Shown: in pieces, positions 2,271-56,419 of the stretch
How positions within the stretch are numbered: position 1 is the first letter of the stretch
How the letters are laid out: each line of letters opens with the position of its first letter
Assembly (NCBI GenBank): GCA_964555285.1
Contig: CAZKRM010000001.1
Coordinates: 220,792 to 284,791, forward strand
DNA from: an uncultured Nitrospiraceae bacterium
GTDB taxonomy: Bacteria > Nitrospirota > Nitrospiria > Nitrospirales > Nitrospiraceae
DNA length: 64,000 nt
Direction of reading: 5' to 3'
Notes under the pieces: generated by a model
Seen by the model: only the letters and a program-made list of their open reading frames with translations
The model's database searches: none
What the model was told of the DNA's origin: nothing
Translations under genes and position numbers: made by a program

Positions 2271-2361
2271 GAGGGGGCTGGGGCGAGCCCTATTGCGCGC
2301 GTCGAGGGAGCGCTTTCTGAAGCGCGGCCTCCGCGAGCACCGGGCTCGCCCCAGCCCCCTC
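2271..2361 (+). repeat. REP-like ~95-bp element, copy A
   Basis: Perfect 20-nt arms GAGGGGCTGGGGCGAGCCC / GGGCTCGCCCCAGCCCCCTC flank the core TTGCGCGCGTCGAGGGAGCGCTTTCTGAAGCGCGGCCTCCGCGAGCAC. Abuts the recG stop. Confidence 0.85.
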
Positions 2362-5025
2362 CTAGCTTACCGCCCCCAGCTCCAGTTTCGTCCGCCACCG
2401 TCGCAGCACGGCAGCCCGCAACGCCTGATGCTGCGGCGCAGACAGCGACGGGTCTCGCTTGAGCAGCGCGAAGGCCTCCTGCCTCGCTTGCTGCAACAAG
2501 TCTGCGTCGCGAATCAAATTGGCCGCCCGGAATTCCGGCATGCCCCACTGGCGGAACCCAAAAAATTCTCCAGGCCCTCTGATCTGAAGGTCGGCTTCCG
2601 CAATCACGAAGCCGTCGGTCGATTTGACCAACGCCTCCAGCCGTTGCTTTGCCGACGACGCCGGAGCAGGCGCGGCGGCATCTTCGCTCACCCGCCGCGT
2701 GGCTGTCCCACCGGTCCGTGACGAAAGGAGGAGGCAATAGGACTGATGTGCGCCTCGCCCGACTCGCCCGCGCAACTGGTGCAACTGCGCAAGCCCGAAC
2801 CGCTCTGCATGCTCCACGACCATGACGGTCGCGTTCGGCACATCCACCCCCACTTCGACGATCGTCGTCGCCACAAGCACGTTGATCTCGCCTGCCTTGA
2901 ACGAGGCCATCGTCCGCTCCTTTTCCTCCGCGCGCAGGCGCCCGTGAAGGAGCCCCACTGAGACGTTCTTGAATTCCTCTTGCTGGAGACGTTCCGCCGC
3001 TTGAATCGCCGCCTGAAGATCGGTCTTCTCGGACTCCTCCACGAGCGGATACACGATGTAGGCCTGGCGTCCGGCTTCCAGGTGATCCTGCACGACTTGA
3101 TAGGCCCGGCGCCGTTGGGACTCAGTAAAGAGCAAGGTCCTCACTGGCTTCCGGCCAGGAGGAAGCGCATCGATGACCGACACATCGAGGTCGCCATACA
3201 CCGTCATGGCCAGCGTTCTGGGAATCGGCGTGGCCGTGAGCACCAGCACATCGGGATGGTAGCCCTTGTCGATCAGGGTCTTCCGCTGCATCACCCCGAA
3301 CCGATGCTGCTCATCGATCACCGCCAGCCCGAGCTTCGCGAACGTGACGCCCTTCTGAATGAGAGCGTGCGTGCCAATCACCACCTGGGTCTGACCGGTT
3401 TCAATTCGGGCCAGCGCCGCAGCCCGCTGCTTGGCTCGTCCGTTGCTCGTCAGCACCGCCACCGATACCCCTAATGGTTCGAGGACGCTCCGCAGGGTAG
3501 AGCCATGCTGCTCCGCCAAAATCTCCGTCGGCACCATGAGCGCGGCCTGATACCCGGAGTCGCAGGCCATCACCATCGCATGGAGCGCAACGACCGTCTT
3601 GCCGCATCCCACATCGCCCTGGATGAGGCGATTCATCGGCCTGGGGCCGGCCATATCCTGCCGGATTTCGCTCCACGCTCGTTCTTGCGCAGCGGTCAGT
3701 TTGAACGGTAAGGCCTTCCCCAATCGCGCCAACAACGGCGTGGCGGGATTGAATTGAATCCCCTTCACCTCACACTTGACCGCTCGCTGGCGACTCGCCA
3801 GGGCCACTTGCAAGAGAAACAGCTCTTCAAACGCCAACCGCCGGTGGGCGGGAGTCATGCCCCGATCCAGCGCAGCGAGGTCGGTCCCGGCGACCGGGAA
3901 ATGCGCCTCAGCCACCGCCTGCCGAATGGGCGGCATGCGATACTTTGCGCGCACCTGGACCGGTAGCACTTCTTCCAGGCCGGCGAGATACTCATCGAGC
4001 AGGTCTTTCACGAGCACGCGCATCTGGCGCGAGGACCACCCTTTTGTCTCATGGTAGATCGGCACGATACGCCCCACATGCAGGGTGCTGTCCGTCTCCT
4101 CCCCCAGCAGTTCGTACTGGCTGACATCCATCCGAAGATCGATCCAGCCGCCTCGGCCGGCCATCACACGCCCGGCCAACATGACGCGGGCACCGACGGC
4201 CAGCACCTGCTCAAGGTAGGGCTGATTGAAGAACACCGCCTGGATGCGTCCCGTCCTGTCTTGCACCATCACTTCGAGCACACTCAGCCGCTTATATCGC
4301 GCGCTTCGAAGCCGGCTGGTCACCACGACGCCGCAGACGGTCGCCTCCGCGCCAGGAACCACACGAGCGATGGGGGTGATGACCGACCGGTCCTCATAAC
4401 GCCAGGGCAGACACCAGAAGGCATCCTCAACGGTGTGAACGCCCAGCCGTTCCAGCAAGGCCGCCCGTTTAGGACCGACTCGCTTGGCATACCGGATCGC
4501 GAGCGCCTTCACATCCTGCGGAAGGTGTTGGTCGCCCGACGAGACAGGTACCGGTCGGCCAGGCTTGGCCTGGCTCCGCATCGGCGGGGCTGCCGTCTGA
4601 CCCGTCTTCAGATCGGTGAGGATCGTGCGCGCCTGTTCGAGCCGGCGGATCTGCTCGACCGGAGATACGCCGACGTGAAAGTCGACGAACAACTGGTGGA
4701 GCGCGAGCAGATGACTTTCGACACCTGCGGCATACACCTGTGCGGCCAGCGCATCGACGATTTGAGCTGCGACAAACGGGCCGAGGTTCTTGATCGACGA
4801 GAGATGCGCGCCGTGATCCCGCGTGGCAAAGTCGATCGGGCGCTCAACGCGCTGCAGGAGATCGTGCAGCGGCCGCACGGGAACCGACGTCGCTGGATCT
4901 GTCGCACGTGGCGTGAATCGGGCAGTCATGAGAAGGTCGTGGGGAGAATGGCGCGCAGCGACCTGCGCCATCGTCGCGTCGAGCCTGTATCGCCGCGCAT
5001 CGTAGCACAGGCCTCGCCCCCTCAC
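2362..5025 (-). CDS. recG: ATP-dependent DNA helicase RecG
   Basis: Contains GDVGCGKT (Walker A), DEQHRFG and the LRGRVGRG motif, with a wedge-domain region before the helicase core. The start is uncertain (GTG 5025, ATG 4971 or ATG 4929; none has a clear SD). Confidence 0.9.
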   Translation of the reverse strand: MRGRGLCYDARRYRLDATMAQVAARHSPHDLLMTARFTPRATDPATSVPVRPLHDLLQRVERPIDFATRDHGAHLSSIKNLGPFVAAQIVDALAAQVYAAGVESHLLALHQLFVDFHVGVSPVEQIRRLEQARTILTDLKTGQTAAPPMRSQAKPGRPVPVSSGDQHLPQDVKALAIRYAKRVGPKRAALLERLGVHTVEDAFWCLPWRYEDRSVITPIARVVPGAEATVCGVVVTSRLRSARYKRLSVLEVMVQDRTGRIQAVFFNQPYLEQVLAVGARVMLAGRVMAGRGGWIDLRMDVSQYELLGEETDSTLHVGRIVPIYHETKGWSSRQMRVLVKDLLDEYLAGLEEVLPVQVRAKYRMPPIRQAVAEAHFPVAGTDLAALDRGMTPAHRRLAFEELFLLQVALASRQRAVKCEVKGIQFNPATPLLARLGKALPFKLTAAQERAWSEIRQDMAGPRPMNRLIQGDVGCGKTVVALHAMVMACDSGYQAALMVPTEILAEQHGSTLRSVLEPLGVSVAVLTSNGRAKQRAAALARIETGQTQVVIGTHALIQKGVTFAKLGLAVIDEQHRFGVMQRKTLIDKGYHPDVLVLTATPIPRTLAMTVYGDLDVSVIDALPPGRKPVRTLLFTESQRRRAYQVVQDHLEAGRQAYIVYPLVEESEKTDLQAAIQAAERLQQEEFKNVSVGLLHGRLRAEEKERTMASFKAGEINVLVATTIVEVGVDVPNATVMVVEHAERFGLAQLHQLRGRVGRGAHQSYCLLLSSRTGGTATRRVSEDAAAPAPASSAKQRLEALVKSTDGFVIAEADLQIRGPGEFFGFRQWGMPEFRAANLIRDADLLQQARQEAFALLKRDPSLSAPQHQALRAAVLRRWRTKLELGAVS

Positions 5026-5152
5026 AATGACGCGCAGGGAGCCCGATCCAGGACGTTCACACGTCCCGTTTGCAGCGCCCTCTACAATCCATCCATTGTT
5101 TTGACGCGACTGTCTAGGGTGTTACACTTCACGATGAACACGGGAGCGTCCG

Positions 5153-6637
5153 ATGTATCGCAAGAACATCTCCCCTATCCTGAGCTACATCGTTGCCGCT
5201 GTCGGCCTGTTCATCCTGTACCACGTGTGGGTGAAGCCTTCCTACTTTCCGCCGACGCCGCCTCCCCCGGTCACGACGATCTCAGCCGAGGAGGGGGCGC
5301 AGCCGACCGCAGAGCAGCAACACGAAGAGGAACTGTACGCGCGGGAGTCGAAACGCCCACGCGTCATCGATCCGAGCCGGGTGCCGGAGTCCCCGTACGT
5401 GGCGAAGCTGGACGGTATCCGCGACGAGTTGGAGAAAGGCAACGCCGCCGAAGCCGAATCGAGGCTGTCCGACCTGCCGTCCTCACTGCTCGCCGAGCCG
5501 CCGGTCAGGCGGTTTGTGGCCGTCCTCTGGAACAACCTGGGCATCCTTCAAGAACAATCGGGCGGCACGGCGGTATCGGTCAAGACCTTCAAGCAAGCGG
5601 TCTCGCTCGATTCGACAAACCCCATCGCGCACTTGAACCTGGCGCACGCCTATTGGGAACTTCGTGATCCGGGGTTGACGGAGGAGTTTCTGCAACACGT
5701 GATTCAGCTCGCGCCGACCGAAGCCTTCCCCCACCTGGCCATGGCCGACTTGTTACAGGAACAGGATCGCCTCGCTGAAGCCGCCCAGCACCTCGATCGA
5801 GCAGCCGACCGCGCCCGGCAAGACCCCGACGTGCGTTCCTATCTCCAGGCTGTGTCGGCCAAGGTCCGGCGTACGGAACAGGCTGAGCAACAACTCACGT
5901 CGCGTGGCAGCGCACATTTCACCGTAAAGTTCGACGGCGGGGAAGATCAGGCGACCTGGACCGGCGTGCTGGACATTCTGGAGGAGGCGTATCGAGACAT
6001 CGGGCAAAAGTTCGGGCATTTCCCCGGCAAGCCGGTCATCGTGGTCCTGCACACCAGGGATCACTTTCAGAACGCAACGGGAAGCCCGATCTGGGCGGAT
6101 GGCCTCTTCGATCCCGTGCTGGGCCGGATTCAGGTGCCGACGCAGGGGGCGTTGACGGACCAGACCTGGCTGACCCGCGTCCTGCGCCATGAGTACGTCC
6201 ATGCCCTGCTGCATGACCAACTCGGCATGGGGGCCGGATCGGTTCCCACCTGGCTCAATGAAGGTCTGGCGATGCAGTTAGCGGGGGATTCCTGGGCGGA
6301 CCTCGACCAGCCGATGCACGGAGATATCGCACTGGTTCCGCTCGCGGTGCTGGAAGGGGAATGGGGCGGCCTCTCAAGCGGAGCCGCAACCGTCGCCTAC
6401 CTCGAAGCGAATTCCGCGACCCACTACCTCATCGACCGGTTCGGCATGCACCGGGTAAAAGAGTTGCTGACCCTGTTGAAATCGAGACACACCATGCCGG
6501 CGGCAATGCAGGCCACGCTCTCCCTGACCTACGAGCAGTTCGAACGACGATGGGTGGACGATCTCAATGCGAGGTTGAAGTCTGGGAAGAGAGTCTCACC
6601 GAAACGGGCGATACCGGATCAATTCGCGGCTGGTTGA
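5153..6637 (+). CDS. membrane-anchored TPR protein with peptidase MA-like (HExxH) domain
   Basis: N-terminal TM helix, TPR-like repeats, then HEYVH ... WLNEGLA, a gluzincin-type motif pair. GGGAG SD before the ATG. Confidence 0.7.
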   Translation: MYRKNISPILSYIVAAVGLFILYHVWVKPSYFPPTPPPPVTTISAEEGAQPTAEQQHEEELYARESKRPRVIDPSRVPESPYVAKLDGIRDELEKGNAAEAESRLSDLPSSLLAEPPVRRFVAVLWNNLGILQEQSGGTAVSVKTFKQAVSLDSTNPIAHLNLAHAYWELRDPGLTEEFLQHVIQLAPTEAFPHLAMADLLQEQDRLAEAAQHLDRAADRARQDPDVRSYLQAVSAKVRRTEQAEQQLTSRGSAHFTVKFDGGEDQATWTGVLDILEEAYRDIGQKFGHFPGKPVIVVLHTRDHFQNATGSPIWADGLFDPVLGRIQVPTQGALTDQTWLTRVLRHEYVHALLHDQLGMGAGSVPTWLNEGLAMQLAGDSWADLDQPMHGDIALVPLAVLEGEWGGLSSGAATVAYLEANSATHYLIDRFGMHRVKELLTLLKSRHTMPAAMQATLSLTYEQFERRWVDDLNARLKSGKRVSPKRAIPDQFAAG

Positions 6638-7501
6638 ATTCTCTTCCTGGCGAGACCACAACGGAATGAAGCCGGCATGTTCATCTTCCTGCTGAACGCT
6701 CTTCCCCACTTCTCGTAGCGGATCGAACGCATCCTGCCACAACAGTTCTTCATCCGTTCCGTTATACGCACGAATCATGAAGTCGAAGGCGTGGCGTAGG
6801 CCCGGCATCGGAGCCACCGTCTCCGTGCGCTCATCGGTAATCCGCTCGATACGCGCGATACCGCGTCCCTCCGCCGCAAACTGATCTTGCCAGATAAGCG
6901 CCCCGGACTGAGGATCGCGCGCGCGTACGAGAAAGAAGTGGTGCACGGATGACGGCTCCGGATTCGAGACCCGCGTGACCGTTGCGCGGGGCCGAGCCAC
7001 CGTCGCCACGGGACTCGCATTCCCCTCTTTCCCTACGGGATTCAGATTCAGCTGCCCTTCCCACAAAAACTTGCCGGTTACGGCATCGTACACACGAATC
7101 CGAAAGTGGGAGAGGCCGTCGGAGCCCACGCCGATGCCACCGGCAAAGATGCGTTCCCGTGCCGATGACGACGTCGGCGTTCCTTCCTCGCGCACATCGA
7201 GATCGTAGGAGTCTTCGGTGAGCACCACTCCGGTGTTCGGATCGTAGGTCTTGATCAGAATGGTCGACGTCCCTGCCGCCTCAAAGCCAAAGCCGGCCGC
7301 CACGACCGGCGGCGTGCCGCTTGCCGTCAGCTTGGCGAACTCGTGCGTGCTCATGAAGCCGGATTGCCCGAGGAGATCGTAGCCGGCTCCAAATGCGACA
7401 CCCGTTGTGAGTAGGGAGCCGAGGCCGACCGCGATTCCCCACCGACACCGGTCCGCTCGTCGGACCCCTCTCAGCGTCAACATCCATTGCCTGAGTCCCA
7501 T
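6596..7501 (-). CDS. hypothetical secreted protein with internal repeats
   Basis: I place the start at internal ATG 7499-7501 (GGAGGAG SD), giving MGLRQWMLTLRGVRRADR...AFGAG, which is signal-like. The motif YD..TG..LW.(G/D)Q recurs three times. The upstream part of the track ORF was discarded. Confidence 0.5.
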   Translation of the reverse strand: MGLRQWMLTLRGVRRADRCRWGIAVGLGSLLTTGVAFGAGYDLLGQSGFMSTHEFAKLTASGTPPVVAAGFGFEAAGTSTILIKTYDPNTGVVLTEDSYDLDVREEGTPTSSSARERIFAGGIGVGSDGLSHFRIRVYDAVTGKFLWEGQLNLNPVGKEGNASPVATVARPRATVTRVSNPEPSSVHHFFLVRARDPQSGALIWQDQFAAEGRGIARIERITDERTETVAPMPGLRHAFDFMIRAYNGTDEELLWQDAFDPLREVGKSVQQEDEHAGFIPLWSRQEENSTSRELIRYRPFR

Positions 7502-8182: not shown

Positions 8183-9152
8183 TCGGTCGCACCCGCTCGA
8201 AGCCGGCCTCGCGAAGCCAGCGCGCCGTGTCGGCCAGCGAATAGGTATTGCCGGTCTCGGTAAAGAGCAACATCGTCACGGCAAACAAGCCGGCTTCCTG
8301 CGGGTAGAGTCCCTCCCGATCATGGAGAAACGCGTCCTGAACGATCATCCGCCCGCCGGGCGTCAGCGCCGGCAGAGCGCGTCGGAAAAGCGCCTGGTTT
8401 TGTTCGGGCGAGTAGATGTGCAAGACATTCGAATACCAGATGATGTCGTACCGGCCGGTGATCGGCTCCTGCATAAAGTCCAGCGGTTGATACGACAGCC
8501 GCCGGCCGGCCTTGTGCGTGGCGGCGATCTTCCGCGCCACCTCCAACGCAGCAGGCCGATCGCACACCGTTGCCTGCAGCTGTGGGTTCTTCGTCAAGAA
8601 CGCCATCGCATAGGTGCCCGGCCCTCCTCCGAGATCCAGAAGCGTCTTGGCGCCTTTCAGATTCACCTGCGCCGACACTTTCGGCGCAACTTCCAGCGAC
8701 CGATGGTGCATGGCCCACGTGAACTGCTCACGATAGCCCGGCTCCTCCGGCTCATCGTGGTCGAGGGGGAGTCCCGTTTTCACGCTGTCGGTCAGACGAG
8801 ACCAATCGGCCCAGTGGTTCCGCAACAGCGCGAGGTACGCGCCGCGATAGGCGGGGCTCTTGGCATTCAACGCGGTGGCGGCCAGCTTGCTGTTCCAATA
8901 GGTATCGCCCGATTTTCGTAACAGGCCGGCCGCCGCGAGATTGCGGCACAGAATCGCGAGGCCTCGCTCGCTGACCTTGAGCGCGGCAGCCAGTTCACCG
9001 ACCTGCCATTTCTTGGAGCCGATTGCCGTAAACAGGTCGAGTTCCAGTGCCGTTATCAGCACCCGCGGCAAGCGATAGGCCATGACGGCATCGCGAAACT
9101 CCTCGAAGGTCGTGATCGTCTTCGTCTTCAATCTTTTATCCTTCACCCACAA
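8052..9152 (-). CDS. O-methyltransferase family 2 (dimerisation domain + SAM-binding domain)
   Basis: LLDLGGGPGTYA (motif I) and ...DIIWYSNVLH..., with an N-terminal wHTH-like dimerisation region. TTG start is uncertain. The C-terminal ~40 aa overlap the convergent gene. Confidence 0.75.
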   Translation of the reverse strand: MWVKDKRLKTKTITTFEEFRDAVMAYRLPRVLITALELDLFTAIGSKKWQVGELAAALKVSERGLAILCRNLAAAGLLRKSGDTYWNSKLAATALNAKSPAYRGAYLALLRNHWADWSRLTDSVKTGLPLDHDEPEEPGYREQFTWAMHHRSLEVAPKVSAQVNLKGAKTLLDLGGGPGTYAMAFLTKNPQLQATVCDRPAALEVARKIAATHKAGRRLSYQPLDFMQEPITGRYDIIWYSNVLHIYSPEQNQALFRRALPALTPGGRMIVQDAFLHDREGLYPQEAGLFAVTMLLFTETGNTYSLADTARWLREAGFERVRPIKMRKGTGDWDGGVLEASCPGTNPETLARRTRSVRNSRGRSVR

Positions 9153-9160
9153 TAGCAGGA

Positions 9161-9313
9161 GGTGTGCCGGGGTTGACCGCTACTGCGCGCGTCCAGCGAG
9201 CACATTCTTCAATCAGGTCGAGCGATGCTCGACACGGGAGGGGGCCCGAACCAACTCCCCTCCCGTACCCACAGTGCGGGCTGCGCGAGCACAGCGGTCA
9301 GCCTCGACGCACC
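9161..9313 (+). repeat. REP-like element, copy B (with ~60-nt insertion in the core)
   Basis: Arms GGTGTGCCGGGGTTGACCGCT / AGCGGTCAGCCTCGACGCACC. Core halves ACTGCGCGCGTCCAGCGAGCAC and GTGCGGGCTGCGCGAGCAC are separated by extra sequence that has its own hairpin (GTCGAGCGATGCTCGAC). Confidence 0.75.
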
Positions 9314-9316
9314 TCC

Positions 9317-10966: not shown

Positions 10967-11063
10967 ACATGGAGCAGTGGGGCTAGCCCAACTGCGGCCG
11001 TCGAGCGACCACTTTCTCAAGTGGGGGCTCCGGGAGCATAGGGCTAGCCCCGCTGCTCCATGT
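10967..11063 (+). repeat. REP-like element, copy C
   Basis: Arms ACATGGAGCAGTGGGGCTAGCCC / GGGCTAGCCCCGCTGCTCCATGT (one T-G). Core AACTGCGGCCGTCGAGCGACCAC TTTCTCAA GTGGGGGCTCCGGGAGCA. Confidence 0.85.
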
Positions 11064-11068
11064 CTGCA

Positions 11069-11617
11069 TTACATCCCCGTCGAACCACCACCCTTGCCCG
11101 AACCAGCCAATAACTTCTCGACCTCTTGTACAATCACATCCGCTCCCGCCAAATCCATGTTCCCCACACGCTGCCACCGAATCACCCCGTTCTGATCGAT
11201 CACGTAGACATTCGGGATGAACTTCCCGCCGCCATACAGTTTGTCCGTGACCTTGCCGGGATCGAGCAGGTAGGGATAGGTGACTTTCACCGGAAACGCC
11301 GAGAGAAACTCGCCGACGTCCTTCTTCCCATTGCCCGCCGAGTTGACACCGACCACCGCCACGTTCTTCCCCTGCACGGCCTCATGAACCTTCTGCAAGT
11401 TCGTGCCCTGCATCAGACAGGGCTCACAGATATGGAATAAGCCCAGAACCACCACCTTGCCCTTCATCGACTCCAGCGAAACCGTCTCGCCGGTGATCGC
11501 TGTGAGCGTGAACGTCGGGGCCTTCTCCCCGGTCTTGAAGAGTCCCGCCGCCAGAATGACCTGCGCGGCGAACACGGGAACTATCAGCACCATCAGGGTG
11601 ACGAGCCATCGTTTCAT
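11069..11617 (-). CDS. TlpA/ResA-like periplasmic thiol-disulfide oxidoreductase (redoxin family)
   Basis: Signal peptide, CEPC active-site motif and a thioredoxin fold pattern. GAGGAGG SD. Confidence 0.8.
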   Translation of the reverse strand: MKRWLVTLMVLIVPVFAAQVILAAGLFKTGEKAPTFTLTAITGETVSLESMKGKVVVLGLFHICEPCLMQGTNLQKVHEAVQGKNVAVVGVNSAGNGKKDVGEFLSAFPVKVTYPYLLDPGKVTDKLYGGGKFIPNVYVIDQNGVIRWQRVGNMDLAGADVIVQEVEKLLAGSGKGGGSTGM

Positions 11618-11632
11618 GGCAACCTCCTCTTC

Positions 11633-11701
11633 GTGAGTTCTGAGTTAGGAGTTCTGAGTCCTGAGTTGAACCCAGAACTCAAGACTCAGCACTCAGAACT
11701 G
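11633..11701. repeat. heptad-periodic hairpin (CTGAGTT type)
   Basis: Left arm GTGAGTT CTGAGTT AGGAGTT CTGAGTC CTGAGTT. Right arm AGAACTC AAGACTC AGCACTC AGAACTG. Lies between the purF stop and the next start. Confidence 0.85.
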
Positions 11702-11755
11702 CTCGTGTGCGTATCCTAACACGCGAAATTTTTCAGGGGCAACCAGCGGCGAAAC

Positions 11756-16479: not shown

Positions 16480-16598
16480 CGCAGCTTCCACATCAGACTT
16501 GGCTCGCATTCTGAAATCTCGACGATCTTCTTGTACTCGTCGTCCGTCAGATTATGCTGCGCGATGAGGTCTTTGGTGATGAGCTGCGCTGAAAGCAT
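16476..16598 (-). pseudogene. relic 5' end of purL (40-codon [32 protein letters not shown]...)
   Basis: Codons 6-28 match the N-terminus of the functional purL with mostly synonymous differences. The ORF then leaves purL sequence and stops at a TGA that overlaps the ATG of the HicB-like gene. Confidence 0.7.
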
Positions 16599-18420: not shown

Positions 18421-18526
18421 GTTATGAGTTATGAGTGCTGAGTTGGTTCAGAGCCTTGAGTTCCCACTCCCGCTGAAGTTCAGGCAACTCAGAACCCAGA
18501 ACTCACAACTCAGAACTCGAACTCAG
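18421..18526. repeat. heptad-periodic hairpin (CTGAGTT type)
   Basis: Left arm GTTATGA GTTATGA GTGCTGA GTTGGTT CAGAGCC TTGAGTT. Right arm AACTCAG AACCCAG AACTCAC AACTCAG AACTCGA ACTCAG. Fills the purS-purQ spacer. Confidence 0.85.
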
Positions 18527-18966: not shown

Positions 18967-19062
18967 GAAGGGCGGCATGAATGCTCTCACCTGCGCGCAT
19001 CGGACGAGCACCGTTTTACCGTGCGCGTTCTGCGAGCACAGAGAGCGTTCATGTCGCCCTCC
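18967..19062 (+). repeat. REP-like element, copy D
   Basis: Arms GAAGGGCGGCATGAATGCTCTC / GAGAGCGTTCATGTCGCCCTCC. Core ACCTGCGCGCATCGGACGAGCAC CGTTTTACC GTGCGCGTTCTGCGAGCAC. Confidence 0.85.
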
Positions 19063-19067: not shown

Positions 19068-19268
19068 TCACGGTTGGCTCCTCTGCTCAGATGCTTTAGT
19101 CTGCCTGTCCACGTATTTCCTGATCCAGAAAATCCCTGCGATCGTCCCGAATCCACCAAAAACAAGCGCCACAAAGGCCCAGCGCCAGGGTGACTCGTTC
19201 AGGCGATAGGCCATCATGCCCACCACCGCCGCCCACACCAGAATGGACGCCACCAGACCATAATTCAT
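19068..19268 (-). CDS. hypothetical small membrane protein
   Basis: 66 aa from internal ATG (MNYGLVASILVWAAVVGMMAY...ALVFGGFGTIAGIFWI), two TM helices. The upstream part of the track ORF runs towards REP copy E. Confidence 0.45.
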   Translation of the reverse strand: MNYGLVASILVWAAVVGMMAYRLNESPWRWAFVALVFGGFGTIAGIFWIRKYVDRQTKASEQRSQP

Positions 19269-19351
19269 GAACAACCGCAGAAACCTCTTCACTCTTTTTC
19301 TTCCTTCTTCCTTCTTCCCTTCCTCTAAAGGAAGGATTGGGAGATTCCTAT

Positions 19352-19449
19352 GAGGGGATGGTGAGGTTGTCCTCAACTGCGCGCGTCCAACGAGGGCCTT
19401 CTTAGGCCGCGCGTTGCGCGAGCAAAGAGGACGGCCTCACCATCCCCTC
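19352..19449 (+). repeat. REP-like element, copy E
   Basis: Arms GAGGGGATGGTGAGGTTGTCCTC / GAGGACGGCCTCACCATCCCCTC (two T-G). Core AACTGCGCGCGTCCAACGAGGGCC TTCTTA GGCCGCGCGTTGCGCGAGCA. Confidence 0.85.
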
Positions 19450-22055: not shown

Positions 22056-22152
22056 GCCGACAGGCTGACAGGCATGCAGGCCGACAAGGTCAGAATCATT
22101 GTTTTCTCTTTACCTTACCACTTGTCAGCTTGTGACCTGTCAGCCTGTCGGC
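22056..22152. repeat. octad-periodic hairpin (GCTGACAG type)
   Basis: Left arm GCCGACAG GCTGACAG GCATGCAG GCCGACAA GGTCAG. Right arm CTTGTCAG CTTGTGAC CTGTCAG CCTGTCGGC. Outer 17 bp are perfect. The right arm is read as the last ~18 codons of ribH. Confidence 0.85.
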
Positions 22153-22620
22153 CTTCCCTCGCAACAGCTTCATCACCGTCGCCATCTCAATAGCCGACTT
22201 GGCCGCCTCCGCCCCGCGATTGTACTTGGCCGGATCCGCCCGCTCGATCGCCTGCGCGACCGTATCGGTCGTCAGCACACCGAAGATCACCGGCACCTCG
22301 GAGTCCAACGCTGCTTGCCCGATCCCTCTCGCCGCTTCGGTACTGATGTATTCGAAGTGGGGTGTATCGCCACGAATGACTGCACCGAGACAGATGACCG
22401 CATCGACGCGGCCCGATTCGGCGAGCTGCCGTGCCACGAGCGGAATCTCGAACGCCCCCGGCACGCGCACAACCTCGATGTCCTCTTCCTTGGCCTTCGC
22501 CTTGGTCAGCGCCTGTATGCAGCACGACAGCAACCGGCTCGTCGCAAACTTATTGAACTTGGCCACGACCACCCCGAACCGTAGCCCCGTCGCATCATGC
22601 GTCCCCTTGCGCAGTTTCAT
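22096..22620 (-). CDS. ribH: 6,7-dimethyl-8-ribityllumazine synthase RibH
   Basis: Start moved to ATG 22618-22620 (GGGAGGG SD): [23 protein letters not shown].. The upstream part of the track ORF translates REP copy F. Confidence 0.92.
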
Positions 22621-22764
22621 CCCTCTCTTTTTCCCTCCCAGCACACTCCTCGAACCCGGGGAGCGACTCATCTGTCCTTCCATTGCGCCATTGCGCGCGT
22701 CGAGCGACCACAGCTCCTGTTCAGGCAACGATTCCTTCCCGAGCTTGCTCGTTTCCTTTCCCTT

Positions 22765-22860
22765 GGACTGGCAGCCGTGCTGGTCCCACTGCGGCCGTCG
22801 AGCGAGGCCCTTCTGAGGGCGCGCGCTCCGGGAGCACAGGACCAGCACGGCTGCCAGTCC
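22765..22860 (+). repeat. REP-like element, copy F (plus a half copy near 22689-22730)
   Basis: Perfect 22-nt arms GGACTGGCAGCCGTGCTGGTCC / GGACCAGCACGGCTGCCAGTCC. Core CACTGCGGCCGTCGAGCGAGGCCC TTCTGA GGGCGCGCGCTCCGGGAGCAC. An upstream half core is CCATTGCGCGCGTCGAGCGACCAC. Confidence 0.85.
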
Positions 22861-22868
22861 GACCTTTT

Positions 22869-24077
22869 TCACACTTTCTTGAGAATGTGCCCCAGCTTCG
22901 CCTTCTTCGTGCGCAGATACTTTTCATTCGCCGCGCCAGGTGGAATCTCGATCGACACGCGCTCGACGACTTGCAAGCCATAGCCTTCGATGCCGACGAT
23001 CTTGCGCGGGTTGTTCGTCATCAGCTTGATCTGGTGCAAGCCGAGATTGACCAGGATCTGCGCCCCGACTCCGTAGTCCCGCAAATCCGCCTTGAAGCCG
23101 AGTTTGAGATTAGCCTCGACCGTGTCGCTCCCCTCATCCTGAAGGCCATAGGCCTTGATCTTGTTCAAAAGCCCGATGCCGCGTCCCTCCTGGTTGAGAT
23201 AGAGCAACACGCCCCGTCCTTCCTTTTGAATGATCTCCATCGCGCGGTGCAACTGGTCCCGGCAATCGCACCGCAGGGAGCCCAGCGCGTCCGCCGTGAG
23301 ACAGCCGGAGTGCACCCGCACGAGTGTCGGCTTCTCGCGCTCGACCGGCCCCTTCACCAACGCGATGTGGGTCACGTTGTCCACTTCGTTCTCGAACGCC
23401 ACCGCCTCGAACTCGCCGAAGACGGTCGGCATGCGGGCGCTCGCGATGCGCCTCACAAAGGTTTCCCGCTGCATGCGGTATTCGATCAACGCCTTGATGG
23501 TGACCAGTGTGAGCTTGTGTGCATGGGCAAATGCGGCGAGCTCCGGCACCCGCGCCATGGTGCCGTCCTCGTTCATGATCTCGCAGATCACGCCCGCCGG
23601 GGTGAGCCCCGCCAGTCGCGCCAGATCGACCGAGCCTTCGGTTTGTCCGGCTCGGCGGAGCACGCCGCCCTTTTGCGCTTTCAGCGGAAAGACGTGGCCC
23701 GGCCTGGCAAGGTCGGTCGGCTTCGACTTCGGATCGATCGCCACATGGACGGTGGTCGCCCGATCAGCAGCGGAAATGCCGGTCGTGATGCCCTTGCGCG
23801 CGTCAACGGAAACGGTAAAGGCCGTACCGAACGTGGCTGTATTTTCCGCTGCCTGCGGCGGAAGCTGAAGTTCCTCGACACGCTCCGGCGTCAGTGCCAG
23901 ACAGATGAGCCCCCGCGCGTGCCTGGCCATGAAATTAATGGCGTGGGGCGTGACCTTCTCAGCCGCCATGACAAGGTCGCCCTCATTCTCGCGGTCCTCA
24001 TCATCCACGAGAATGACGAACTTGCCTTTCTTGATGTCCTTGATCGCGTCGTCGATCGAATCGAACGGTGTTGCCAT
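22869..24077 (-). CDS. ribBA: bifunctional 3,4-dihydroxy-2-butanone-4-phosphate synthase / GTP cyclohydrolase II RibBA
   Basis: 402 aa. [11 protein letters not shown] (DHBPS) and a C-terminal GCH-II region with the Zn-site cysteines [14 protein letters not shown]. Confidence 0.95.
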
Positions 24078-32659: not shown

Positions 32660-32752
32660 TGGGGTGTCTCAGTGACCCTTTATGCTCGCAGAACGCGCAC
32701 GATAAAACTGTGCTCGTCCGATGCGCGCAGTCGAAGGGTCACTGAGACACCC
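32660..32752 (-). repeat. REP-like element, copy J (only copy in inverted orientation)
   Basis: Perfect 20-nt arms GGGGTGTCTCAGTGACCCTT / AAGGGTCACTGAGACACCCC. The core reverse-complements to CGACTGCGCGCATCGGACGAGCAC AGTTTTATC GTGCGCGTTCTGCGAGCA. Confidence 0.85.
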
Positions 32753-32858
32753 CTTGAAGACAACGCAGGAACGAGCGGAATTAGGAACACAGAAGCGGGT
32801 GGGCAACCGAGGAGAAACGAGGGACAGATTCAGACCCAGAGTGACGAAGATGCTCCGA

Positions 32859-33083
32859 TCAGTGCGGCCGATGATAGGCCACCAAGTACTCCGGTCCCAT
32901 GCGCCGCAACAACACGTGCCCCGCGCGGCTCAACCGGTCGACGGCGGCAAACATTTGAGCCCAACTCAGCCCGGATTGGGACGATAGCTCCTCAATGGTC
33001 AGGGGACCCCTCCTTTTTAACTCCGCGACAAGCTTCTCGTCCGTCAACAGCGACAGGTTGGGGAAATTGAGGGTGGCATTCAT
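32859..33083 (-). CDS. small protein P1 with WAQxxxAVDRLxRxG motif (possible winged-helix), paralog of 37492..37692
   Basis: 74 aa from ATG 33081-33083 (GGAGGT SD): MNATLNFPNLSLLTDEKLVAELKRRGPLTIEELSSQSGLSWAQMFAAVDRLSRAGHVLLRR.. The upstream part of the track ORF was discarded. Confidence 0.6.
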   Translation of the reverse strand: MNATLNFPNLSLLTDEKLVAELKRRGPLTIEELSSQSGLSWAQMFAAVDRLSRAGHVLLRRMGPEYLVAYHRPH

Positions 33084-33251
33084 GGTGACCTCCATCCGTA
33101 GCGGCGAGCGACATCGGTGCCAAATCGAGGGCAGGATCTTTCTAAAACATAGCCTAATCCAAAAAGGATAGGAGTCAAGGAATTCGAGGATAGGTGATTG
33201 TTCTCGCAGCAACGCCGCCTGCCTGTCTTCATATTTCTTCATTCTCTCCAA

Positions 33252-33350
33252 GCAGGGTGGCCTAGACTGCCCTTAGACTGCGCGCGTCCACCGAGCACCC
33301 TTCTGAGGGTGCGGGGTGCGCGAACATAAAGGGCGGCTAGGCCACCCTGC
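33252..33350 (+). repeat. REP-like element, copy G
   Basis: Arms GCAGGGTGGCCTAGACTGCCCTT / AAGGGCGGCTAGGCCACCCTGC. Core AGACTGCGCGCGTCCACCGAGCACCC TTCTGA GGGTGCGGGGTGCGCGAACA. Confidence 0.85.
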
Positions 33351-33353: not shown

Positions 33354-34769
33354 TCATCCTCCGCCGCGCTTCCCCTGCATCTCCTTGTCGTAGAACTCCA
33401 ACATTTGGGCGATCTCCTCTTTCGTCAACCCCTTCTCCACCCATCGGTGGCTTTCCTGTGCAAGGAGATCCTTGGCGACTGCCGGCGAGAGCTCGCGCAC
33501 CATCGGCAGGAACTTCGTATAGAAATGCTTGGCGACTTCATAGAAGCCTTGCCAATGGACAAAGTCGGGAGCCATTTTGGAGAGCCCGTGCCTAGCACGT
33601 CGGCCTTCATGGTGCCACAGCTCGTAGAACACCCATTCGATCTCTTCGTCGAACGGCGTCGGCGTGATCTTCCCGAGTTCCCTCAGCCGATCCATCGCCA
33701 GCTTCGCCGGCTTCCCGAATTTTTCATTATAGAGCGTCACGCCGCTGTCCATTTGCGTGAAGAACCGTTCCACAATCTCTGCGCTATGGCAGGAGGAACA
33801 CACCTGCGTCATGGCCTTTCGTCGATCTTCGAAATTCTCCAGCCGCGTCGAGACCACCGGACGCAACGTCCAACTGATACGATCCCCCACGTCGTGCGTC
33901 ACCTCCTGCGTGCCGGTCGCACTCATGTGGCAGGTCGCGCAGGTGGGAAAGAGATAATCCTTGCCGGGCAGCCACTTCTCTTTTGGTTGGCCGAGCTTCA
34001 TCTTCTCTTTGTTCGCCGTGAACATCACGCCGTGTTTGCTCTCGTAATAGGCCTCGATCTGAGGATGATCCGGTCCCATATGGCAACGCCCGCAGCTCTC
34101 CGGCTGCCGGGCTTGAGCGACAGAGAAGCTGTGCCGCGCATGACAAGCCGAACACGTGCCCTTGGACCCATCCGGGTTCACCCTGCCGATTCCCGAGTTG
34201 GGCCACGTTGCCGGATGCAGCTTCCCCTTTTCCATGACCTTCACCACGCTTCCGTGACAGCCGGCACATCCGGTGGTGCCCACCTCCGGTCCTTCAACCA
34301 CATTGCCCAGGAAATTATCAAGCGAGCCGATGAATTGCGCCGCCTTCGCATGGTGGGACTTGCCGAATTCCTTGGCCTCCTTGTCGTGGCAGCGCATGCA
34401 ATCTTTCGGCGTCACCAGCGTGGAGATCAGCGTACCTTCATGGTCATAGGCATCCGCGTCGTCCTTCTCGGCGCGGTGGCACTCCACACAACCAATGCCC
34501 TTGGGCGCATGGTTGCTGACCTTCCAGTCGTTGATGCCGCCGACCGCCACATCTTTGGCCGTATGGCAATCGATGCACCGCTTGTTCTCAACGGAGATAA
34601 ACGGTCGAATCCCACCGCCACGCCGCTCTTCGACCTGGATGTACCCGACCCCCGTCAGCGCGAGGAACAACACCAGGCACAGCCCGCCGATCATGTACCG
34701 GGAAAAGTTGAGTTTCCCGTTCTGCGCGCGGCCTTCTTGTTCAGCCCGCTCTTCGCCAGGGTCTTGCAT
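33354..34769 (-). CDS. membrane-anchored octaheme cytochrome c (HAO/octaheme nitrite reductase family)
   Basis: Eight CxxCH motifs (CIDCH, CVECH, CMRCH, CAGCH, CSACH, CGRCH, CATCH, CSSCH), an N-terminal TM helix, and a C-terminal ELWHHEGRRARHG region as in the HAO family. Confidence 0.88.
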   Translation of the reverse strand: MQDPGEERAEQEGRAQNGKLNFSRYMIGGLCLVLFLALTGVGYIQVEERRGGGIRPFISVENKRCIDCHTAKDVAVGGINDWKVSNHAPKGIGCVECHRAEKDDADAYDHEGTLISTLVTPKDCMRCHDKEAKEFGKSHHAKAAQFIGSLDNFLGNVVEGPEVGTTGCAGCHGSVVKVMEKGKLHPATWPNSGIGRVNPDGSKGTCSACHARHSFSVAQARQPESCGRCHMGPDHPQIEAYYESKHGVMFTANKEKMKLGQPKEKWLPGKDYLFPTCATCHMSATGTQEVTHDVGDRISWTLRPVVSTRLENFEDRRKAMTQVCSSCHSAEIVERFFTQMDSGVTLYNEKFGKPAKLAMDRLRELGKITPTPFDEEIEWVFYELWHHEGRRARHGLSKMAPDFVHWQGFYEVAKHFYTKFLPMVRELSPAVAKDLLAQESHRWVEKGLTKEEIAQMLEFYDKEMQGKRGGG

Positions 34770-35819: not shown

Positions 35820-35840
35820 TGACCTACCCTTCGGGTGAAA

Positions 35841-44531: not shown

Positions 44532-47662
<3,131 letters not shown>

Positions 47663-49005: not shown

Positions 49006-49095
49006 CATGGCCTCCTTCCCCACTCCATGTGCACAACCTGGTTCGGTGCCGGCCTCAGTCTGCGTTGGCTCCGCTGTTGCTAGATTCGTCGCTCG

Positions 49096-50874: not shown

Positions 50875-50881
50875 AAGCCCT

Positions 50882-50979
50882 GAGCAATCAGCTTTCAGCT
50901 ATCAGCACTCAGCCATCAATGCGAGGAAGGAGATGATATTCTCCCTTCGAGCTGATCGCTGCCGGCTGACTGCTGATGG
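50882..50979. repeat. heptad-periodic hairpin (TCAGC type) upstream of nadE
   Basis: Left arm AATCAGC TTTCAGC TATCAGC ACTCAGC CATCAAT. Right arm GCTGATC GCTGCCG GCTGACT GCTGATG. Apical stem GAAGGAGA..TCTCCCTTC. Confidence 0.8.
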
Positions 50980-50989
50980 CGACCGCGGT

Positions 50990-52095: not shown

Positions 52096-52761
52096 CTAAC
52101 CCTTGACCTTCCCCTGCGGCATGCCCTGCTCGACCCACTCGACCACCCGATCGAGTCCTTGTCCAGTGAGTAGATTCGTGAAGATGAACGGCAGCTCGCC
52201 GCGCATGCGGCGGCTGTCGCGCTCCATCACCGCGAGATCGGCTCCCACGTGCGGAGCCAGATCGATCTTGTTGATCACGAGGAGGTCCGAGCGTGTGATG
52301 CCGGGCCCGCCCTTGCGGGGAATCTTATCGCCCGCCGCTACATCGATGACATAGATGACGCGATCCGCAAGCTCAGGGCTGAACGTCGCCGCCAGGTTAT
52401 CGCCTCCGCTCTCCACGAACATGAGTTCGACATCCGGATGACGCTTGAGCAGATCGTCCAGCGCTTCCTGATTGTGGGAGGCATCCTCGCGGATCGCCGT
52501 GTGAGGACAACCGCCGGTTTCGACACCGATGATGCGATCGGCCGGCAAGGCTCCTCGCCTGGTCAAAAACTCCGCGTCTTCCTTCGTGAAGATGTCGTTG
52601 GTCACGACGGCGAGACTGTACCGATCGCGCAGCTTCAGACAGAGCGCCTCGACCAATGCCGTCTTCCCCGAACCGACCGGCCCGCCGACGCCAATGACCG
52701 GAATGTTGGCAGCACGAGCCAGCGTCGGCTTGCCGTTGCCGTGATGGTGGTGTTCGTGCAT
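52096..52761 (-). CDS. ureG: urease accessory GTPase UreG (His-rich N-terminus)
   Basis: [10 protein letters not shown]..., P-loop [15 protein letters not shown]. Confidence 0.96.
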
Positions 52762-52766
52762 AAAAA

Positions 52767-52800
52767 GCTTTCAGCCGTCAGCTTTCAGCCATTAGTCAGG
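52767..52800. repeat. unpaired tandem heptads (TCAGC type) in the ureF-ureG spacer
   Basis: GCTTTCA GCCGTCA GCTTTCA GCCATTA GTCAGG. No complementary array nearby. Confidence 0.6.
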
Positions 52801-53495: not shown

Positions 53496-55223
53496 TCAAA
53501 ATAAGAAATACCGTTGCGCCATCGGGAGCACCGCCATCGGGTCGCATTTCAGCACCTGCCCGTCAGCCTTGACGACATAGGTCTCCGGATCGACCTCGAT
53601 CTTCGGCAGCGCGTCATTCAACTTCAAATCGCGTTTGCCGATGCTCCGACACCGTTTCACCGCCGCCGCGCGTTTCTGGAGCCCCAAGCTCTTCGGCACC
53701 TCACGATCCAACGCGATTCCCGACAAGAACGTCAGGCTCGTACTATACGGCGCCCGGCCGAAGCTCCCGAACATGGGCCTGGTCACCACCGGCTGCGGCG
53801 TCGGGATGGACGCGTTCGGATCGCCCATCGCAGCCGACATCAGGAATCCGCCCTTCACCACCATGTCTGGTTTCACGCCGAAGAAGGCCGGTTTCCAGAT
53901 CACGAGATCGGCCAGCTTGCCCACTTCAACCGATCCAACTTCGTGTGCGATGCCGTGTGTGATCGCGGGATTGATCGTATACTTGGCCACGTAACGGCGG
54001 ACCCGAAAATTATCGTTGGCATTGGACAACGCATCCGTCGAAGTCTGCGACAGATGCCCGCGCTGCGCTTTCATCTTGTGCGCCGTCTGCCAGGTGCGGA
54101 TGATCACTTCGCCTACCCGCCCCATCGCTTGAGAGTCCGACGACATGATGCTGATCGCCCCCATGTCGTGCAGGATATCCTCGGCAGCAATCGTTTCCCG
54201 CCGAATGCGCGACTCGGCAAAGGCAATGTCTTCCGGCACCCGTGGGTTCAAATGGTGACAGACCATGAGCATGTCCAGATGCTCATCCATCGTATTGACC
54301 GTGAAGGGCATCGTCGGATTCGTAGACGACGGCAACACGTTCGGCTCGCCGCACACCCTCATGATGTCCGGCGCGTGACCGCCGCCGGCCCCTTCGGTAT
54401 GGAAGGAGTGGATCGTGCGGCCCTTGAAAGCCTTGATCGTATCTTCGACGAAGCCGGCCTCGTTCAACGTGTCGGTGTGAATCGCGACCTGCACGTCGAA
54501 TTCTTCCGCCACATCAAGACAGGTCGAAATCGCCGCCGGCGTCGTGCCCCAATCTTCATGGAGCTTCAATCCGATCGCGCCGGCCTCGACCTGCTCGCGC
54601 AGCCCCTCCGGCAACGAGGAGTTGCCCTTGCCCAGGAACCCCAGATTGATCGGGAATCCTTCAGCCGCTTCCAACATGCGATGGATATTCCAGGCTCCCG
54701 GCGTGCAAGTGGTCGCGTTCGTGCCGGTGGCCGGGCCAGTGCCGCCGCCGATGAGGGTAGTCAGTCCGTTCGCCAAGGCTTCATTGATAATCTGCGGGCA
54801 GATGAAGTGAATGTGCGTATCGATGCCGCCGGCCGTGACGATCTTCCCCTCCGCCGAGATCACCTCGGTGCAGGCCCCGACTTCCATGCCCTTCGTCACG
54901 CCCTCCATCAAGTCCGGATTGCCTGCCTTGCCGACTCCCACAATGCGGCCGTCTCGAATCCCGATGTCGGCTTTCACGACGCCCCACCAATCGAGCACAA
55001 TAGCATTCGTAATCACGACATCCAGTGCCCCCTTCGCCCGCGTGGCTGAAGACGACTGGCCCATGCCGTCACGAATCACTTTCCCGCCGCCGAACTTCGC
55101 CTCCTCCCCCGGCACGGTCAGATCGCGGGTGATCTCGATCAGCAACTCAGTATCGGCAAGACGAATGCGATCCCCTGTAGTGGGACCGTACAGATCGTTA
55201 TATTGGCGGCGGGGAATTTTCAT
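53496..55223 (-). CDS. ureC: urease alpha subunit UreC
   Basis: 575 aa. [23 protein letters not shown] (carbamylated Lys context), MVCHHL. Confidence 0.98.
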
Positions 55224-55269: not shown

Positions 55270-55368
55270 GGAGGGTTGGCCGGACTGTCCTTTCACTGCG
55301 CGCATCGAACGAGCACAGCTTCATCGTGCGCGTTCTGCGAGCACAAAGGGCGGTCCGGCCGACCCTCC
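55270..55368 (+). repeat. REP-like element, copy H (followed by a half core to ~55410)
   Basis: Arms GGAGGGTTGGCCGGACTGTCCTTT / AAAGGGCGGTCCGGCCGACCCTCC (three T-G). Core CACTGCGCGCATCGAACGAGCAC AGCTTCATC GTGCGCGTTCTGCGAGCAC. Followed by GAGGGTGCGGGTGGCGCGAGCAC. Confidence 0.85.
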
Positions 55369-55413
55369 ATCCTCCGACACCTTCCGAGGGTGCGGGTGGC
55401 GCGAGCACAGGAC

Positions 55414-55884
55414 TTAACCCGACCTCTTCTTGCTGATAAAGCCGTACTCGACTGCTCGCGCGATGGCCTGTTCTTTCACGTGTTGATCATCCAACCGTCC
55501 ATGCGTCAGCCCGTTCATCCCATAGGCCACCCGATTGCCCCCGATCGCCACGAGCGTCACACGCTTTTCTTCCCCCGGCTCAAACCGCACCGCCGTGCCC
55601 GCCGGCACGCAAAGGCGGAACCCATAACTTTGCTCTCGATCAAACTTCAGCGCCCGGTTCGCCTCAAAGAAATGGCAGTGCGACCCGACTTGAATCGGGC
55701 GATCTCCCGTATTGGCCACGGTCACCTCCACCGTCTGCCGCCCACGGAATGCTTCGATGTCCCCTTGTCCGAGGATGATCTCACCGGGAATCACGTCGGC
55801 GAGCTGAAGACTTTTGACGGACTTCCCTTTCGAGGCCGCTTTCGCGCTGAGCTGTGGTCCGGTCACTTTGGCTTTCTTCTTCAC
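55414..55884 (-). CDS. ureB: urease beta subunit UreB (possible Lys-rich N-terminal extension)
   Basis: Canonical core (V/M)[15 protein letters not shown]... GTG 55884 has an AGAGGA SD 9 nt after the ureA stop. The alternative GTG 55794 would give the usual MIPGEI start but has no SD. Confidence 0.9.
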
Positions 55885-55893: not shown

Positions 55894-56196
55894 CTATCGA
55901 ATCGGCTGATGCACTGTCACCAGCTTGGTACCATCAGGGAAGGTCCCTTCGACTTGCAACTCCGGAATCATCTCCGGCACACCGGGCATCACATCGGATC
56001 GCTTCAACAGGGTCGCTCCATCACTCATCAGTTCCGACACCGAGCGGCCATCTCGAATCCCCTCCAGAATCGCCGCCGTGATATAGGCCACCGCCTCCGG
56101 ATGATTCAACTTCAACCCGCGCGCTTGTCTCTCCTTCGCCAACTGCGCCGCGACGTAAATCAGCAGCTTCTCTTGCTCTCTCGGTGTCAGATGCAT
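55894..56196 (-). CDS. ureA: urease gamma subunit UreA
   Basis: [39 protein letters not shown] is canonical UreA. The track ORF starts 2 codons upstream at TTG. Confidence 0.96.
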
Positions 56197-56326
56197 AGCC
56201 AAACCCCGTCACTCGTCAATGGTGAGGAATCACGCGACTCTCTCAATCGGCGAATCGTGACAGTCACTAATCCGACCCTCTCTTCCTTACTCTCTCACCC
56301 CGACGGGCAAGAGGCGTCATCGTCGG

Positions 56327-56419
56327 CTAGGGGCCTGGGTTATTTCCAACTGCGCGCATCGGACGAGCACAGTGTTATCGTGCGCGTTCTGCGAGCAAGG
56401 AAATAGCCCAGGTCCCTAG
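56327..56419 (+). repeat. REP-like element, copy I
   Basis: Arms CTAGGGGCCTGGGTTATTTCC / GGAAATAGCCCAGGTCCCTAG. Core AACTGCGCGCATCGGACGAGCAC AGTGTTATC GTGCGCGTTCTGCGAGCA. Confidence 0.85.

Follow-up and report, generated by a model that had tools for sequence, protein, structure and literature searches.

In Escherichia coli, repetitive extragenic palindromic (REP) sequences often lie in the proximity of stop codons, and single-strand transposition of the class carried out by REP-associated tyrosine transposases (RAYTs) is not known to make target duplications. The attC sites of integrons follow the stop codon of the upstream open reading frame (ORF) in an orientation fixed by that ORF, work as a folded strand complementary to the coding strand, and keep their structure with a variable sequence. 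By definition, a REP is a 20-50 nt palindrome that has a conserved tetranucleotide, usually GTAG, in front of it, and the RAYT (TnpA-REP) acts on one single strand only (PMC8266576). REPINs are REP doublets forming hairpins with conserved ends and a variable middle, whose stems frequently show compensated changes (PMC3116915). Here, we describe a family of hairpin repeats of the Nitrospira lineage, which is represented by ten full copies in a 64,000-nt stretch of contig CAZKRM010000001.1 (assembly GCA_964555285.1), hereafter called the window, whose coordinates count from its first letter. An earlier note on this DNA had listed ten copies of a dispersed, REP-like family of about 95 bp, having a conserved centre and termini that diverge but still pair, and this description is supported by the data below. 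In the literature on Nitrospira repeats, MITEs (miniature inverted-repeat transposable elements), REPs, or RAYTs, no description of the family was found.

All ten copies were confirmed at the coordinates given earlier (Table 1). The covariance-model scan proposed earlier was run with a model built from nine copies and with the filters off, and it recovered exactly the ten full copies, everything else being at noise level; the core pattern CTGCGSSCRTCNNNSGAG occurs 8 times, compared to 0.02 expected from shuffles. Both half copies reported before are also present, one consisting of box 1 and the other of the loop, box 2, and one arm. The length of about 95 bp is right for the family unit but not for copy B, which reaches 155 nt with an apical insertion of ~70 nt (about 9204-9272) folding into two additional hairpins. 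Each of the ten copies forms a single long hairpin with a folding z of -5 to -9 relative to dinucleotide shuffles. A variable outer stem of 20-24 bp is followed by a 3x1-2 nt internal loop and then by the conserved inner helix, which contains, in order, TGC, a G/A mismatch, CGCR, a 2-nt TC bulge, 5 bp, an A/G mismatch, and an apical stem of 4-6 bp. The loop is either UUCUNA or 9 nt long, and the division into two subfamilies made in the earlier note was found again. The arms had been called perfect in copies A, F, and J; this is the case for A and F, and also for copy G, which is likewise entirely Watson-Crick, but copy J is fully paired with two G.U pairs.

A pattern scan using one genome per species returned at least 120 loci, and the range given here is therefore a lower bound. 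At least 29 of these loci carry a true element, all in Nitrospira, Nitrospiraceae, Nitrospirales, or Nitrospirota, with L105 titled Nitrospira lenta, and the other 91 of the loci listed are matches by chance inside coding sequence from other phyla. Metagenome contigs, scanned with a two-box pattern, added at least 127 further elements. The family thus comprises at least about 180 copies, which are all located, among the matches listed, in Nitrospira-type contigs; the genome- and metagenome-derived counts on strand, placement, and clusters reported below likewise refer to the matches listed. The closest named relatives of the UreB protein encoded in the window come from Nitrospira and Nitrospiraceae metagenome-assembled genomes.

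The pairing of the stem, rather than the sequence of its outer part, is what the copies keep. When 55 copies were aligned to the model, 93.9% of the cells were standard pairs, compared to 72.0% after shuffling, and sliding the partners by 1-3 columns lowered the paired cells to 35-54%. Changes on both sides were observed in 26 of the 31 pairs, and none of 500 shuffles matched any of the observed covariation measures. The covariation is overwhelming, and the covarying apical stem described in the earlier note was confirmed. The conserved core covaries as well, for example as GC/AU, GC/CG, and AU/GC/CG at three pairs. Conservation peaks in the centre of the alignment (columns 34-47 and 135-146 of alignment A4) and is lowest at both ends.

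The outer arms evolve faster than the core, and every window copy represents a separate arm lineage. The idea that the arms are specific to their loci was not borne out, as a loose arm consensus, RGGGRTGGCCNGGNTGRTCC on the strand used in the earlier note, extends across genomes and identical arms occur at unrelated loci. One arm type, GGGGATGGAGCCTGATGATCTTC, is found in two copies at locus L085 and also at L016, L059, L095, L001, and L072. Because the same arms together with the core recur at non-orthologous loci with differing flanks, both within and between genomes, the arms are part of the dispersed unit.

The imperfect pairs of the stem bear on the working form of the element. Counts of G.U pairs based on minimum-free-energy structures are noisy, as flanks and alternative pairings are included, and a strand-symmetric stem alignment was used instead, in which the left arm is aligned to the reverse complement of the right arm, all mismatches are scored alike, and stem interiors are counted. 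An A.C mismatch on the forward strand, which is the strand on which the earlier note wrote the family, is a G.U pair on the other strand. In the window and genome loci, 945 Watson-Crick pairs were accompanied by 59 forward G.U pairs, 4 A.C mismatches, and 14 transversions (805, 52, 4, and 10, respectively, after dereplication). The window by itself gives 201, 13, 1, and 0, and the metagenome set shows 2385, 161, 23, and 69 (1251, 82, 15, and 37 when dereplicated). The dereplicated G.U to A.C ratio of 52:4 corresponds to p of about 1e-11. Divided by gene-context class, the G.U to A.C ratios are 34:2, 4:0, 9:0, and 4:0; every class shows the signature, and the polarity is therefore intrinsic to the element and does not follow the local direction of transcription. 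The ranking of the two strands is the same under DNA energy parameters. As a control, eight heptad-built palindromes of the window were scored; their G.U pairs number 7 on the plus and 18 on the minus strand, next to 38 transversions, a weak lean in the opposite direction. A general mutational strand bias was rejected as the cause of the G.U excess because these other hairpin families of the window lean the other way, and the signature tracks the element. Pairing is kept on one strand only, namely the forward strand. The earlier proposal of selection on a folded RNA or single-stranded DNA (ssDNA) is supported and is strengthened by this one-strand signature.

The folding strand also has a defined relation to the neighbouring genes. 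Genes around 181 elements were predicted with a self-trained codon-usage gene caller, which was checked against Pfam and against recorded gene calls. Where a stop codon faces the forward 3' end (n = 114), the median gap is 22 nt, with 60 gaps within about 30 nt and 45 of 10 nt or less; where a stop codon faces the forward 5' end (n = 47), the median gap is 199 nt and no gap is 10 nt or shorter. Of the elements in convergent spacers, 24 of 24 are nearer the stop codon of the gene antisense to the folding strand (p about 1e-7), and 54 of the 66 elements in co-directional arrays are nearer the upstream stop than the downstream start. Two loci, L050 and L222, each have one spacer with two opposite-oriented elements, each lying beside its own gene. 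The orientation therefore follows the neighbouring gene and not replication, and replication direction as the determinant was rejected, since convergent spacers hold both orientations. The strand that folds thus lies antisense to the neighbouring gene, which argues that the element is not an mRNA structure. All ten window copies are intergenic or overlap last codons only, and nine of them obey the orientation rule, copy G being the exception. Read on the forward strand, about 10 nt on either side of the element are rich in pyrimidines, with mixed C and T, and these flanks are purine-rich on the mRNA strand. Neither a sigma-70-type promoter nor, in two scanned regions, a terminator made of a hairpin and a T-run was detected on either strand at the five scanned elements D, E, F, I, and J, and a canonical promoter or intrinsic terminator function was therefore rejected.

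The history of single sites was followed by comparing orthologous spacers, most fully the one between ureB and ureC. In L125 and L126 the two genes overlap and the element is absent, and in L123, L127, and L128 a single intact element is present that is orthologous to the window remnant at 55380..55431. The mRNA-side arm of the intact element constitutes the last 4-5 ureB codons and the stop codon, giving the protein tail K[KR]xS[GV], and the arm of the window remnant similarly encodes the final ureB codons and stop on the minus strand. Changes in the arms between lineages, a 1-nt indel included, are mirrored in the opposite arm, and the ureB-end copy has been kept in five lineages, with UreB proteins that share 75-89% identity with that of the window. 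The arms at this site are orthologous, and the core comes from three different subfamilies depending on the lineage. The L127 core is identical to that of window copy I, loop included; cores can therefore be exchanged or replaced, with the arms staying. In L124 only one arm is left and UreB reads through, and the window and L130 retain just a half copy of the old element, adjoined by copy I, which is absent in L123, L127, and L128. Between the window and L130, copy I has acquired four independent changes; each lies in the forward 3' arm, is of the A>G or C>T type, and produces a forward G.U pair.

As one arm of the ureB-end copies consists of the last ureB codons and the stop, they had suggested that arms are copied from the target. 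This candidate was ruled out by the occurrence of the same arms with different flanks, by the family arm consensus, and by the different UreB tails of orthologues without the element. The UreB proteins of the window and its relatives show two further features: Nitrospira-type sequences have a lysine-rich N-terminal extension of ~45 residues, and the C-terminal tail is K[KR]xS[GV] in element-bearing lineages and KGxxx in those without the element.

Both conservation and turnover are seen at other sites. Five arm positions, each of them compensated, distinguish copy E from its L186 orthologue, and the flanks of the two are 76-82% identical; in L168, L244, L089, and L175 the element is ~97% identical, compared to ~80% for the flanks. 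The copy-C site, on the other hand, is occupied by four unrelated family members in four contigs (the window and three related ones). Two of these contigs, L015 and L171, have flanks that are 91-95% identical, and the turnover indicates that insertion or replacement has recurred behind this one stop codon. Arrays of three to five directly repeated units in tandem were found at L016, L037, L047, and L085, with a linker that reads GAGAGAAACGAGCAAGCTTGGAAGG on the mRNA-sense strand and occurs in the window only at copy F. Elsewhere, junctions recur between a left half copy, which breaks off after TGCTCGCAGAAC or within the apical loop, and a full unit coming after it; these half-copy/full-copy junctions are mosaics of the kind seen in bacterial interspersed mosaic elements (BIMEs).

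The explanation to which we give about even confidence is that the elements are a Nitrospira-lineage family of short, non-coding, non-autonomous, strand-polar mobile hairpins, which are REP/REPIN-like but atypical. We infer that mobility would proceed via a single-stranded intermediate and that the core would be recognized by a protein. A trans-acting protein would most likely recognize the conserved inner helix with its two boxes, 2-nt bulge, and two fixed mismatches. The outer 20-24 bp would need only to be a helix and could hence drift by compensated changes, giving rise to arm subfamilies. The unit has an intrinsic direction: only the forward strand has to fold, since G.U (G.T) wobbles are tolerated on it and A.C or transversion mismatches are nearly excluded. 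The unit may act as a single strand, most simply as ssDNA handled by a strand-specific enzyme, for which REP/RAYT, the IS200/IS605 ends, and integron attC offer precedents. Copies either land or survive within a few nucleotides of a stop codon, on its 3' side, and their folding strand is antisense to that gene; they can stack in direct tandems with a conserved linker and are replaced by other family members at the same site, some being long retained. A comparison of the flanks detected no target-site duplication beyond chance, the longest word shared by 5' and 3' flanks being 4.24 compared to 4.22 in shuffled pairings; together with the pyrimidine-rich flanks, this would be in keeping with a cut-and-join mechanism in which no duplication arises.

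Several points weigh against such mobile hairpins. The copies have neither a conserved GTAG nor conserved termini; the three bases before the core are NAC, with CTAC in a subset only. At the loci analysed, the family has no linked transposase or recombinase, and neither an excision product nor a clean empty/filled pair with defined ends was recovered from them. The orientation tracks the local gene and not replication, unlike what is expected for replication-coupled ssDNA transposition of the IS608 kind. In addition, the maintained pairing of resident orthologues, as in copies I and E, suggests a host- or locus-level constraint beyond transposition competence, and the tolerance of G.U pairs would fit an RNA equally well. 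A simple selfish-element model accounts for neither the constraint on resident copies nor the gene-directed orientation.

In a REPtron, the RAYT is a single-copy Y1 transposase gene with repeat copies on its flanks. Among 870 predicted proteins from the element-bearing loci, a motif screen detected Y1 (IS200-like, PF01797) genes on L245 only, 4-7 kb from two elements. A RAYT link could thus not be shown for the examined loci, as the Y1 genes are confined to L245 and are not flanked by elements. This metagenome contig carries three IS200-like Y1 transposase genes at 5190-5921, 6476-7209, and 8482-9201, none of them with hairpin elements on its flanks; the one whose flanking DNA was read is enclosed by a perfect 22-bp inverted repeat, AAGTAGCCTGTCCCCTTTTCTT, which is unrelated to the family and occurs nowhere else in the data, and two lie within 2-kb direct repeats.

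It is also conceivable, on a more tentative footing, that the copies are the substrate of an undescribed system, in which a hairpin on the strand opposite the mRNA, as ssDNA or antisense RNA, would be placed or exchanged behind stop codons in a gene-directed orientation by a dedicated core-binding protein. The mechanism would run parallel to that of attC recombination or of a polar transcription insulator, here situated in the housekeeping operons of nitrifiers.

An alternative that we consider unlikely is that the forward strand is transcribed and acts as a factor-dependent terminator or insulator that halts antisense or read-through polymerases ahead of the 3' end of the gene, or as a protein-bound small RNA present in multiple copies. 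The tolerance of G.U pairs with exclusion of A.C mismatches is the classic mark of an RNA helix, and the polarity belongs to the element itself. The hairpin is moreover positioned at the antisense entrance of the gene, convergent spacers can have one element per gene, a pyrimidine-rich tract lies 3' of the hairpin on the forward strand, and the bulge of the core, together with its fixed G.A and A.G mismatches, resembles a protein-binding site. This is difficult to reconcile with the lack of a sigma-70-like promoter upstream and of a canonical terminator tail at the scanned elements, and Rfam has no family overlapping any element or similar to it, whether the gathering threshold is applied or E values up to 10 are allowed. 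Furthermore, most copies lie in co-directional arrays, where forward transcription would be spurious antisense, and the turnover and replacement at the same site are left unexplained.

A role on the sense mRNA has been proposed for E. coli REPs, and the present elements might similarly be 3'-untranslated or intercistronic hairpins that protect against 3' exonucleases, provide processing sites, or modulate translation termination. Consistent with this are the short distances to the stop codon given above for 60 and 45 of the 114 copies, the copies within operons, the urease cluster among them, the retention of the ureB-end copy in five lineages, and the folding of the reverse-complement strand as well, at -55 to -85 kcal/mol. 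The wobbles, however, are on the non-mRNA strand, so that the mRNA version bears the A.C mismatches, whereas other post-stop hairpins of the window show the expected sense-strand signature. No U-tract follows the hairpin on either strand at the scanned elements, and zero sense-oriented copies lie within 10 nt of a stop codon, which a symmetric stabilizer would not explain. We therefore regard a sense-mRNA function as quite unlikely.

Distinctly improbable, in our estimate, is a folded single-strand recombination site of the attC type, at which exchange by a site-specific recombinase at the core or loop would swap segments between copies. Such a site would agree with the position after the stop codon of an upstream ORF that sets the orientation, with the fold being kept on the strand complementary to the coding strand, and with the lack of target-site duplications. 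The ureB site with its orthologous arms and three core subfamilies, including the L127 core shared with copy I, and the half-copy/full-copy junctions recurring at or near the apical loop would also be accounted for. The stem base, however, is without R''/R' core sites, no integrase is among the most frequent Pfam families of the window proteins, and the neighbours are housekeeping operon genes in conserved order rather than cassettes; the core differences between lineages could partly have arisen in place. Finally, quasi-palindrome correction through template switching is an established mutational route, but the view that unselected pairing in decaying relics is maintained by replication template switching, copying changes between arms, is highly improbable: it fits one-step double changes such as those between window copy E and L186, leaves core conservation across genomes unexplained, and cannot produce the 59:4 ratio of G.U to A.C on one strand because template switching is strand-symmetric.

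Table 1. Elements of the hairpin family and other features of the window.
Feature	Position	Strand	Remarks
Copy A	2270..2362	+	perfect outer stem; right end overlaps stop 2362-2364 of 887-aa minus-strand gene
Copy B	9160..9314	+	155-nt variant; occupies entire spacer between two minus-strand genes
Copy C	10967..11063	+	5 nt to stop of minus-strand gene 11069..11617
Copy D	18969..19060	+	9-nt-loop subfamily
Copy E	19352..19449	+	covariance-model match; orthologue in L186
Half copy	22684..22712	+	box 1 only
Linker motif CCTTCCCGAGCTTGCTCGTTTCC	22734..22756	+	5' of copy F; also between tandem elements elsewhere
Copy F	22765..22860	+	perfect outer stem; 8 nt to stop of minus-strand gene 22869..24077
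Copy G	32661..32753	-	sole opposite-oriented window copy; flanked by two minus-strand genes
Copy H	33252..33350	+	3 nt to stop of minus-strand gene 33354..34769
Copy I	55270..55368	+	ureB-ureC spacer; three G.U pairs in outer stem
Remnant of older element	55380..55431	+	loop, box 2, right arm
Copy J	56325..56421	+	upstream of ureA; 5 nt to stop of urea ABC-transporter ATPase gene (56427..57137, minus strand)
Second (heptad) repeat family	11625-11705, 18430-18525, 24085-24210, 35838-35895, 57908-57998, 59180-59250		GAGTTCT / GAGTGCT on one arm, AACTCAG on the other
Third (CAGCnnT) hairpin repeat	47590-47660, 50875-50985, 52758-52795		for example CAGCTTTCAGCTATCAGC
ureB	55414-55884	-	lysine-rich N-terminal extension of the protein
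Ammonium-transporter genes	36332-37600, 37689-39077, 47674-49023	-	three paralogues, Pfam-confirmed
88-nt direct repeat	15400-15487, 16493-16580		84% identical, 1.1 kb apart
Small ORF and 150-aa ORF	32478-32630, 32029-32481	-	beside copy G; candidate toxin-antitoxin-like arrangement
Rfam match, Helicobacter 5' ureB sRNA	54782-55073	+	76.8 bits; antisense within ureC

The genes of the window are housekeeping genes of nitrogen metabolism and lie nearly all on the minus strand. They include three amt genes, glnD, glnE, glutamine synthetase, a urea ABC transporter, and urease; the three paralogous ammonium-transporter genes are 60-76% identical in DNA. The elements create false N-terminal extensions of ORFs, as the earlier note had remarked, for example in 19068..19376, 22096..22872, and 32859..33251. 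Beside copy G, the small ORF and the 150-aa ORF that comes after it form a candidate toxin-antitoxin-like arrangement. The 88-nt direct repeat is located at the ends of two small minus-strand ORFs and probably reflects paralogous small genes. Within ureC, the match to the Helicobacter 5' ureB small RNA (sRNA) most likely reflects conserved urease coding sequence and not an sRNA gene.

Other repeats are found near the hairpin elements. The second family of the window consists of long imperfect hairpins built of heptads, which are mostly located just 3' of the stop codons of minus-strand genes and fold better on the mRNA strand. The third hairpin repeat, made of CAGCnnT heptads, occupies spacers between co-directional minus-strand genes. 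A separate repeat of ~330 bp, seen at 3676-4000 of L125, has the terminal inverted repeats CAGGATGCTGAAAAAGGCC ... GGCCTTTTTGAGCATCCTG; it adjoins hairpin elements in L008, L015, L076, L105, and L110, often with its end beside them, and one contig carries it as an insertion between ureA and ureB.

Nitrospira are key nitrifiers of soil, water, and wastewater plants, and at ~10 copies per 64 kb the repeat would make up an appreciable part of their intergenic sequence. Its copies break assemblies and distort gene calls, by false N-terminal extensions as well as by altered C-termini, of which the UreB tail is an example. The family also offers an unusually clean natural data set on hairpin evolution, with a fixed core, arms that are free but paired, and a constraint on a single strand, whose internal controls allow the hairpin constraint to be told apart from mutational bias. 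Should there be a dedicated enzyme, antisense insertion right behind a stop codon would be a new kind of target choice, and it could serve to locate the 3' ends of genes or to engineer insertions that spare operon expression.

Compared with the known systems, the family shares with MITEs (Correia/NEMIS, ERIC, and RUP) the character of short, non-coding, dispersed hairpin repeats that insert between genes, but it shows neither the target-site duplications nor the conserved terminal inverted repeats of MITEs derived from DDE insertion sequences, and the family has no known parent insertion sequence. The likeness to attC lies in the post-stop position, the ORF-linked orientation, and the fold on the non-coding strand. 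In contrast to attC, the stem base lacks RYYYAAC ... GTTRRRY boxes, the centre being conserved instead; there is no attI, an integrase is not among the most frequent Pfam families of the window, and the flanking genes are urease, amt, glnD, and glnE rather than cassettes. REPs and BIMEs are similar in being high-copy intergenic palindromes downstream of genes that form clusters with linker motifs, and the single-strand action of the RAYT enzyme matches the one-strand signature and the absence of target duplications in this family. Unlike a REP, the unit is compound, with a length of 92-155 nt and no GTAG at either end, its stem base is the variable part, no RAYT adjoins the copies at the loci screened, and its tandems are direct, not alternately inverted as in BIMEs. 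The two conserved boxes, unlike the REPs of a REPIN, are not small palindromes themselves. A REPIN likewise has a hairpin of ~100 nt as the replicative unit, a part of the stem kept by pairing only, and persistence within lineages, but the geometry is inverted, as this family has a conserved middle and variable ends.

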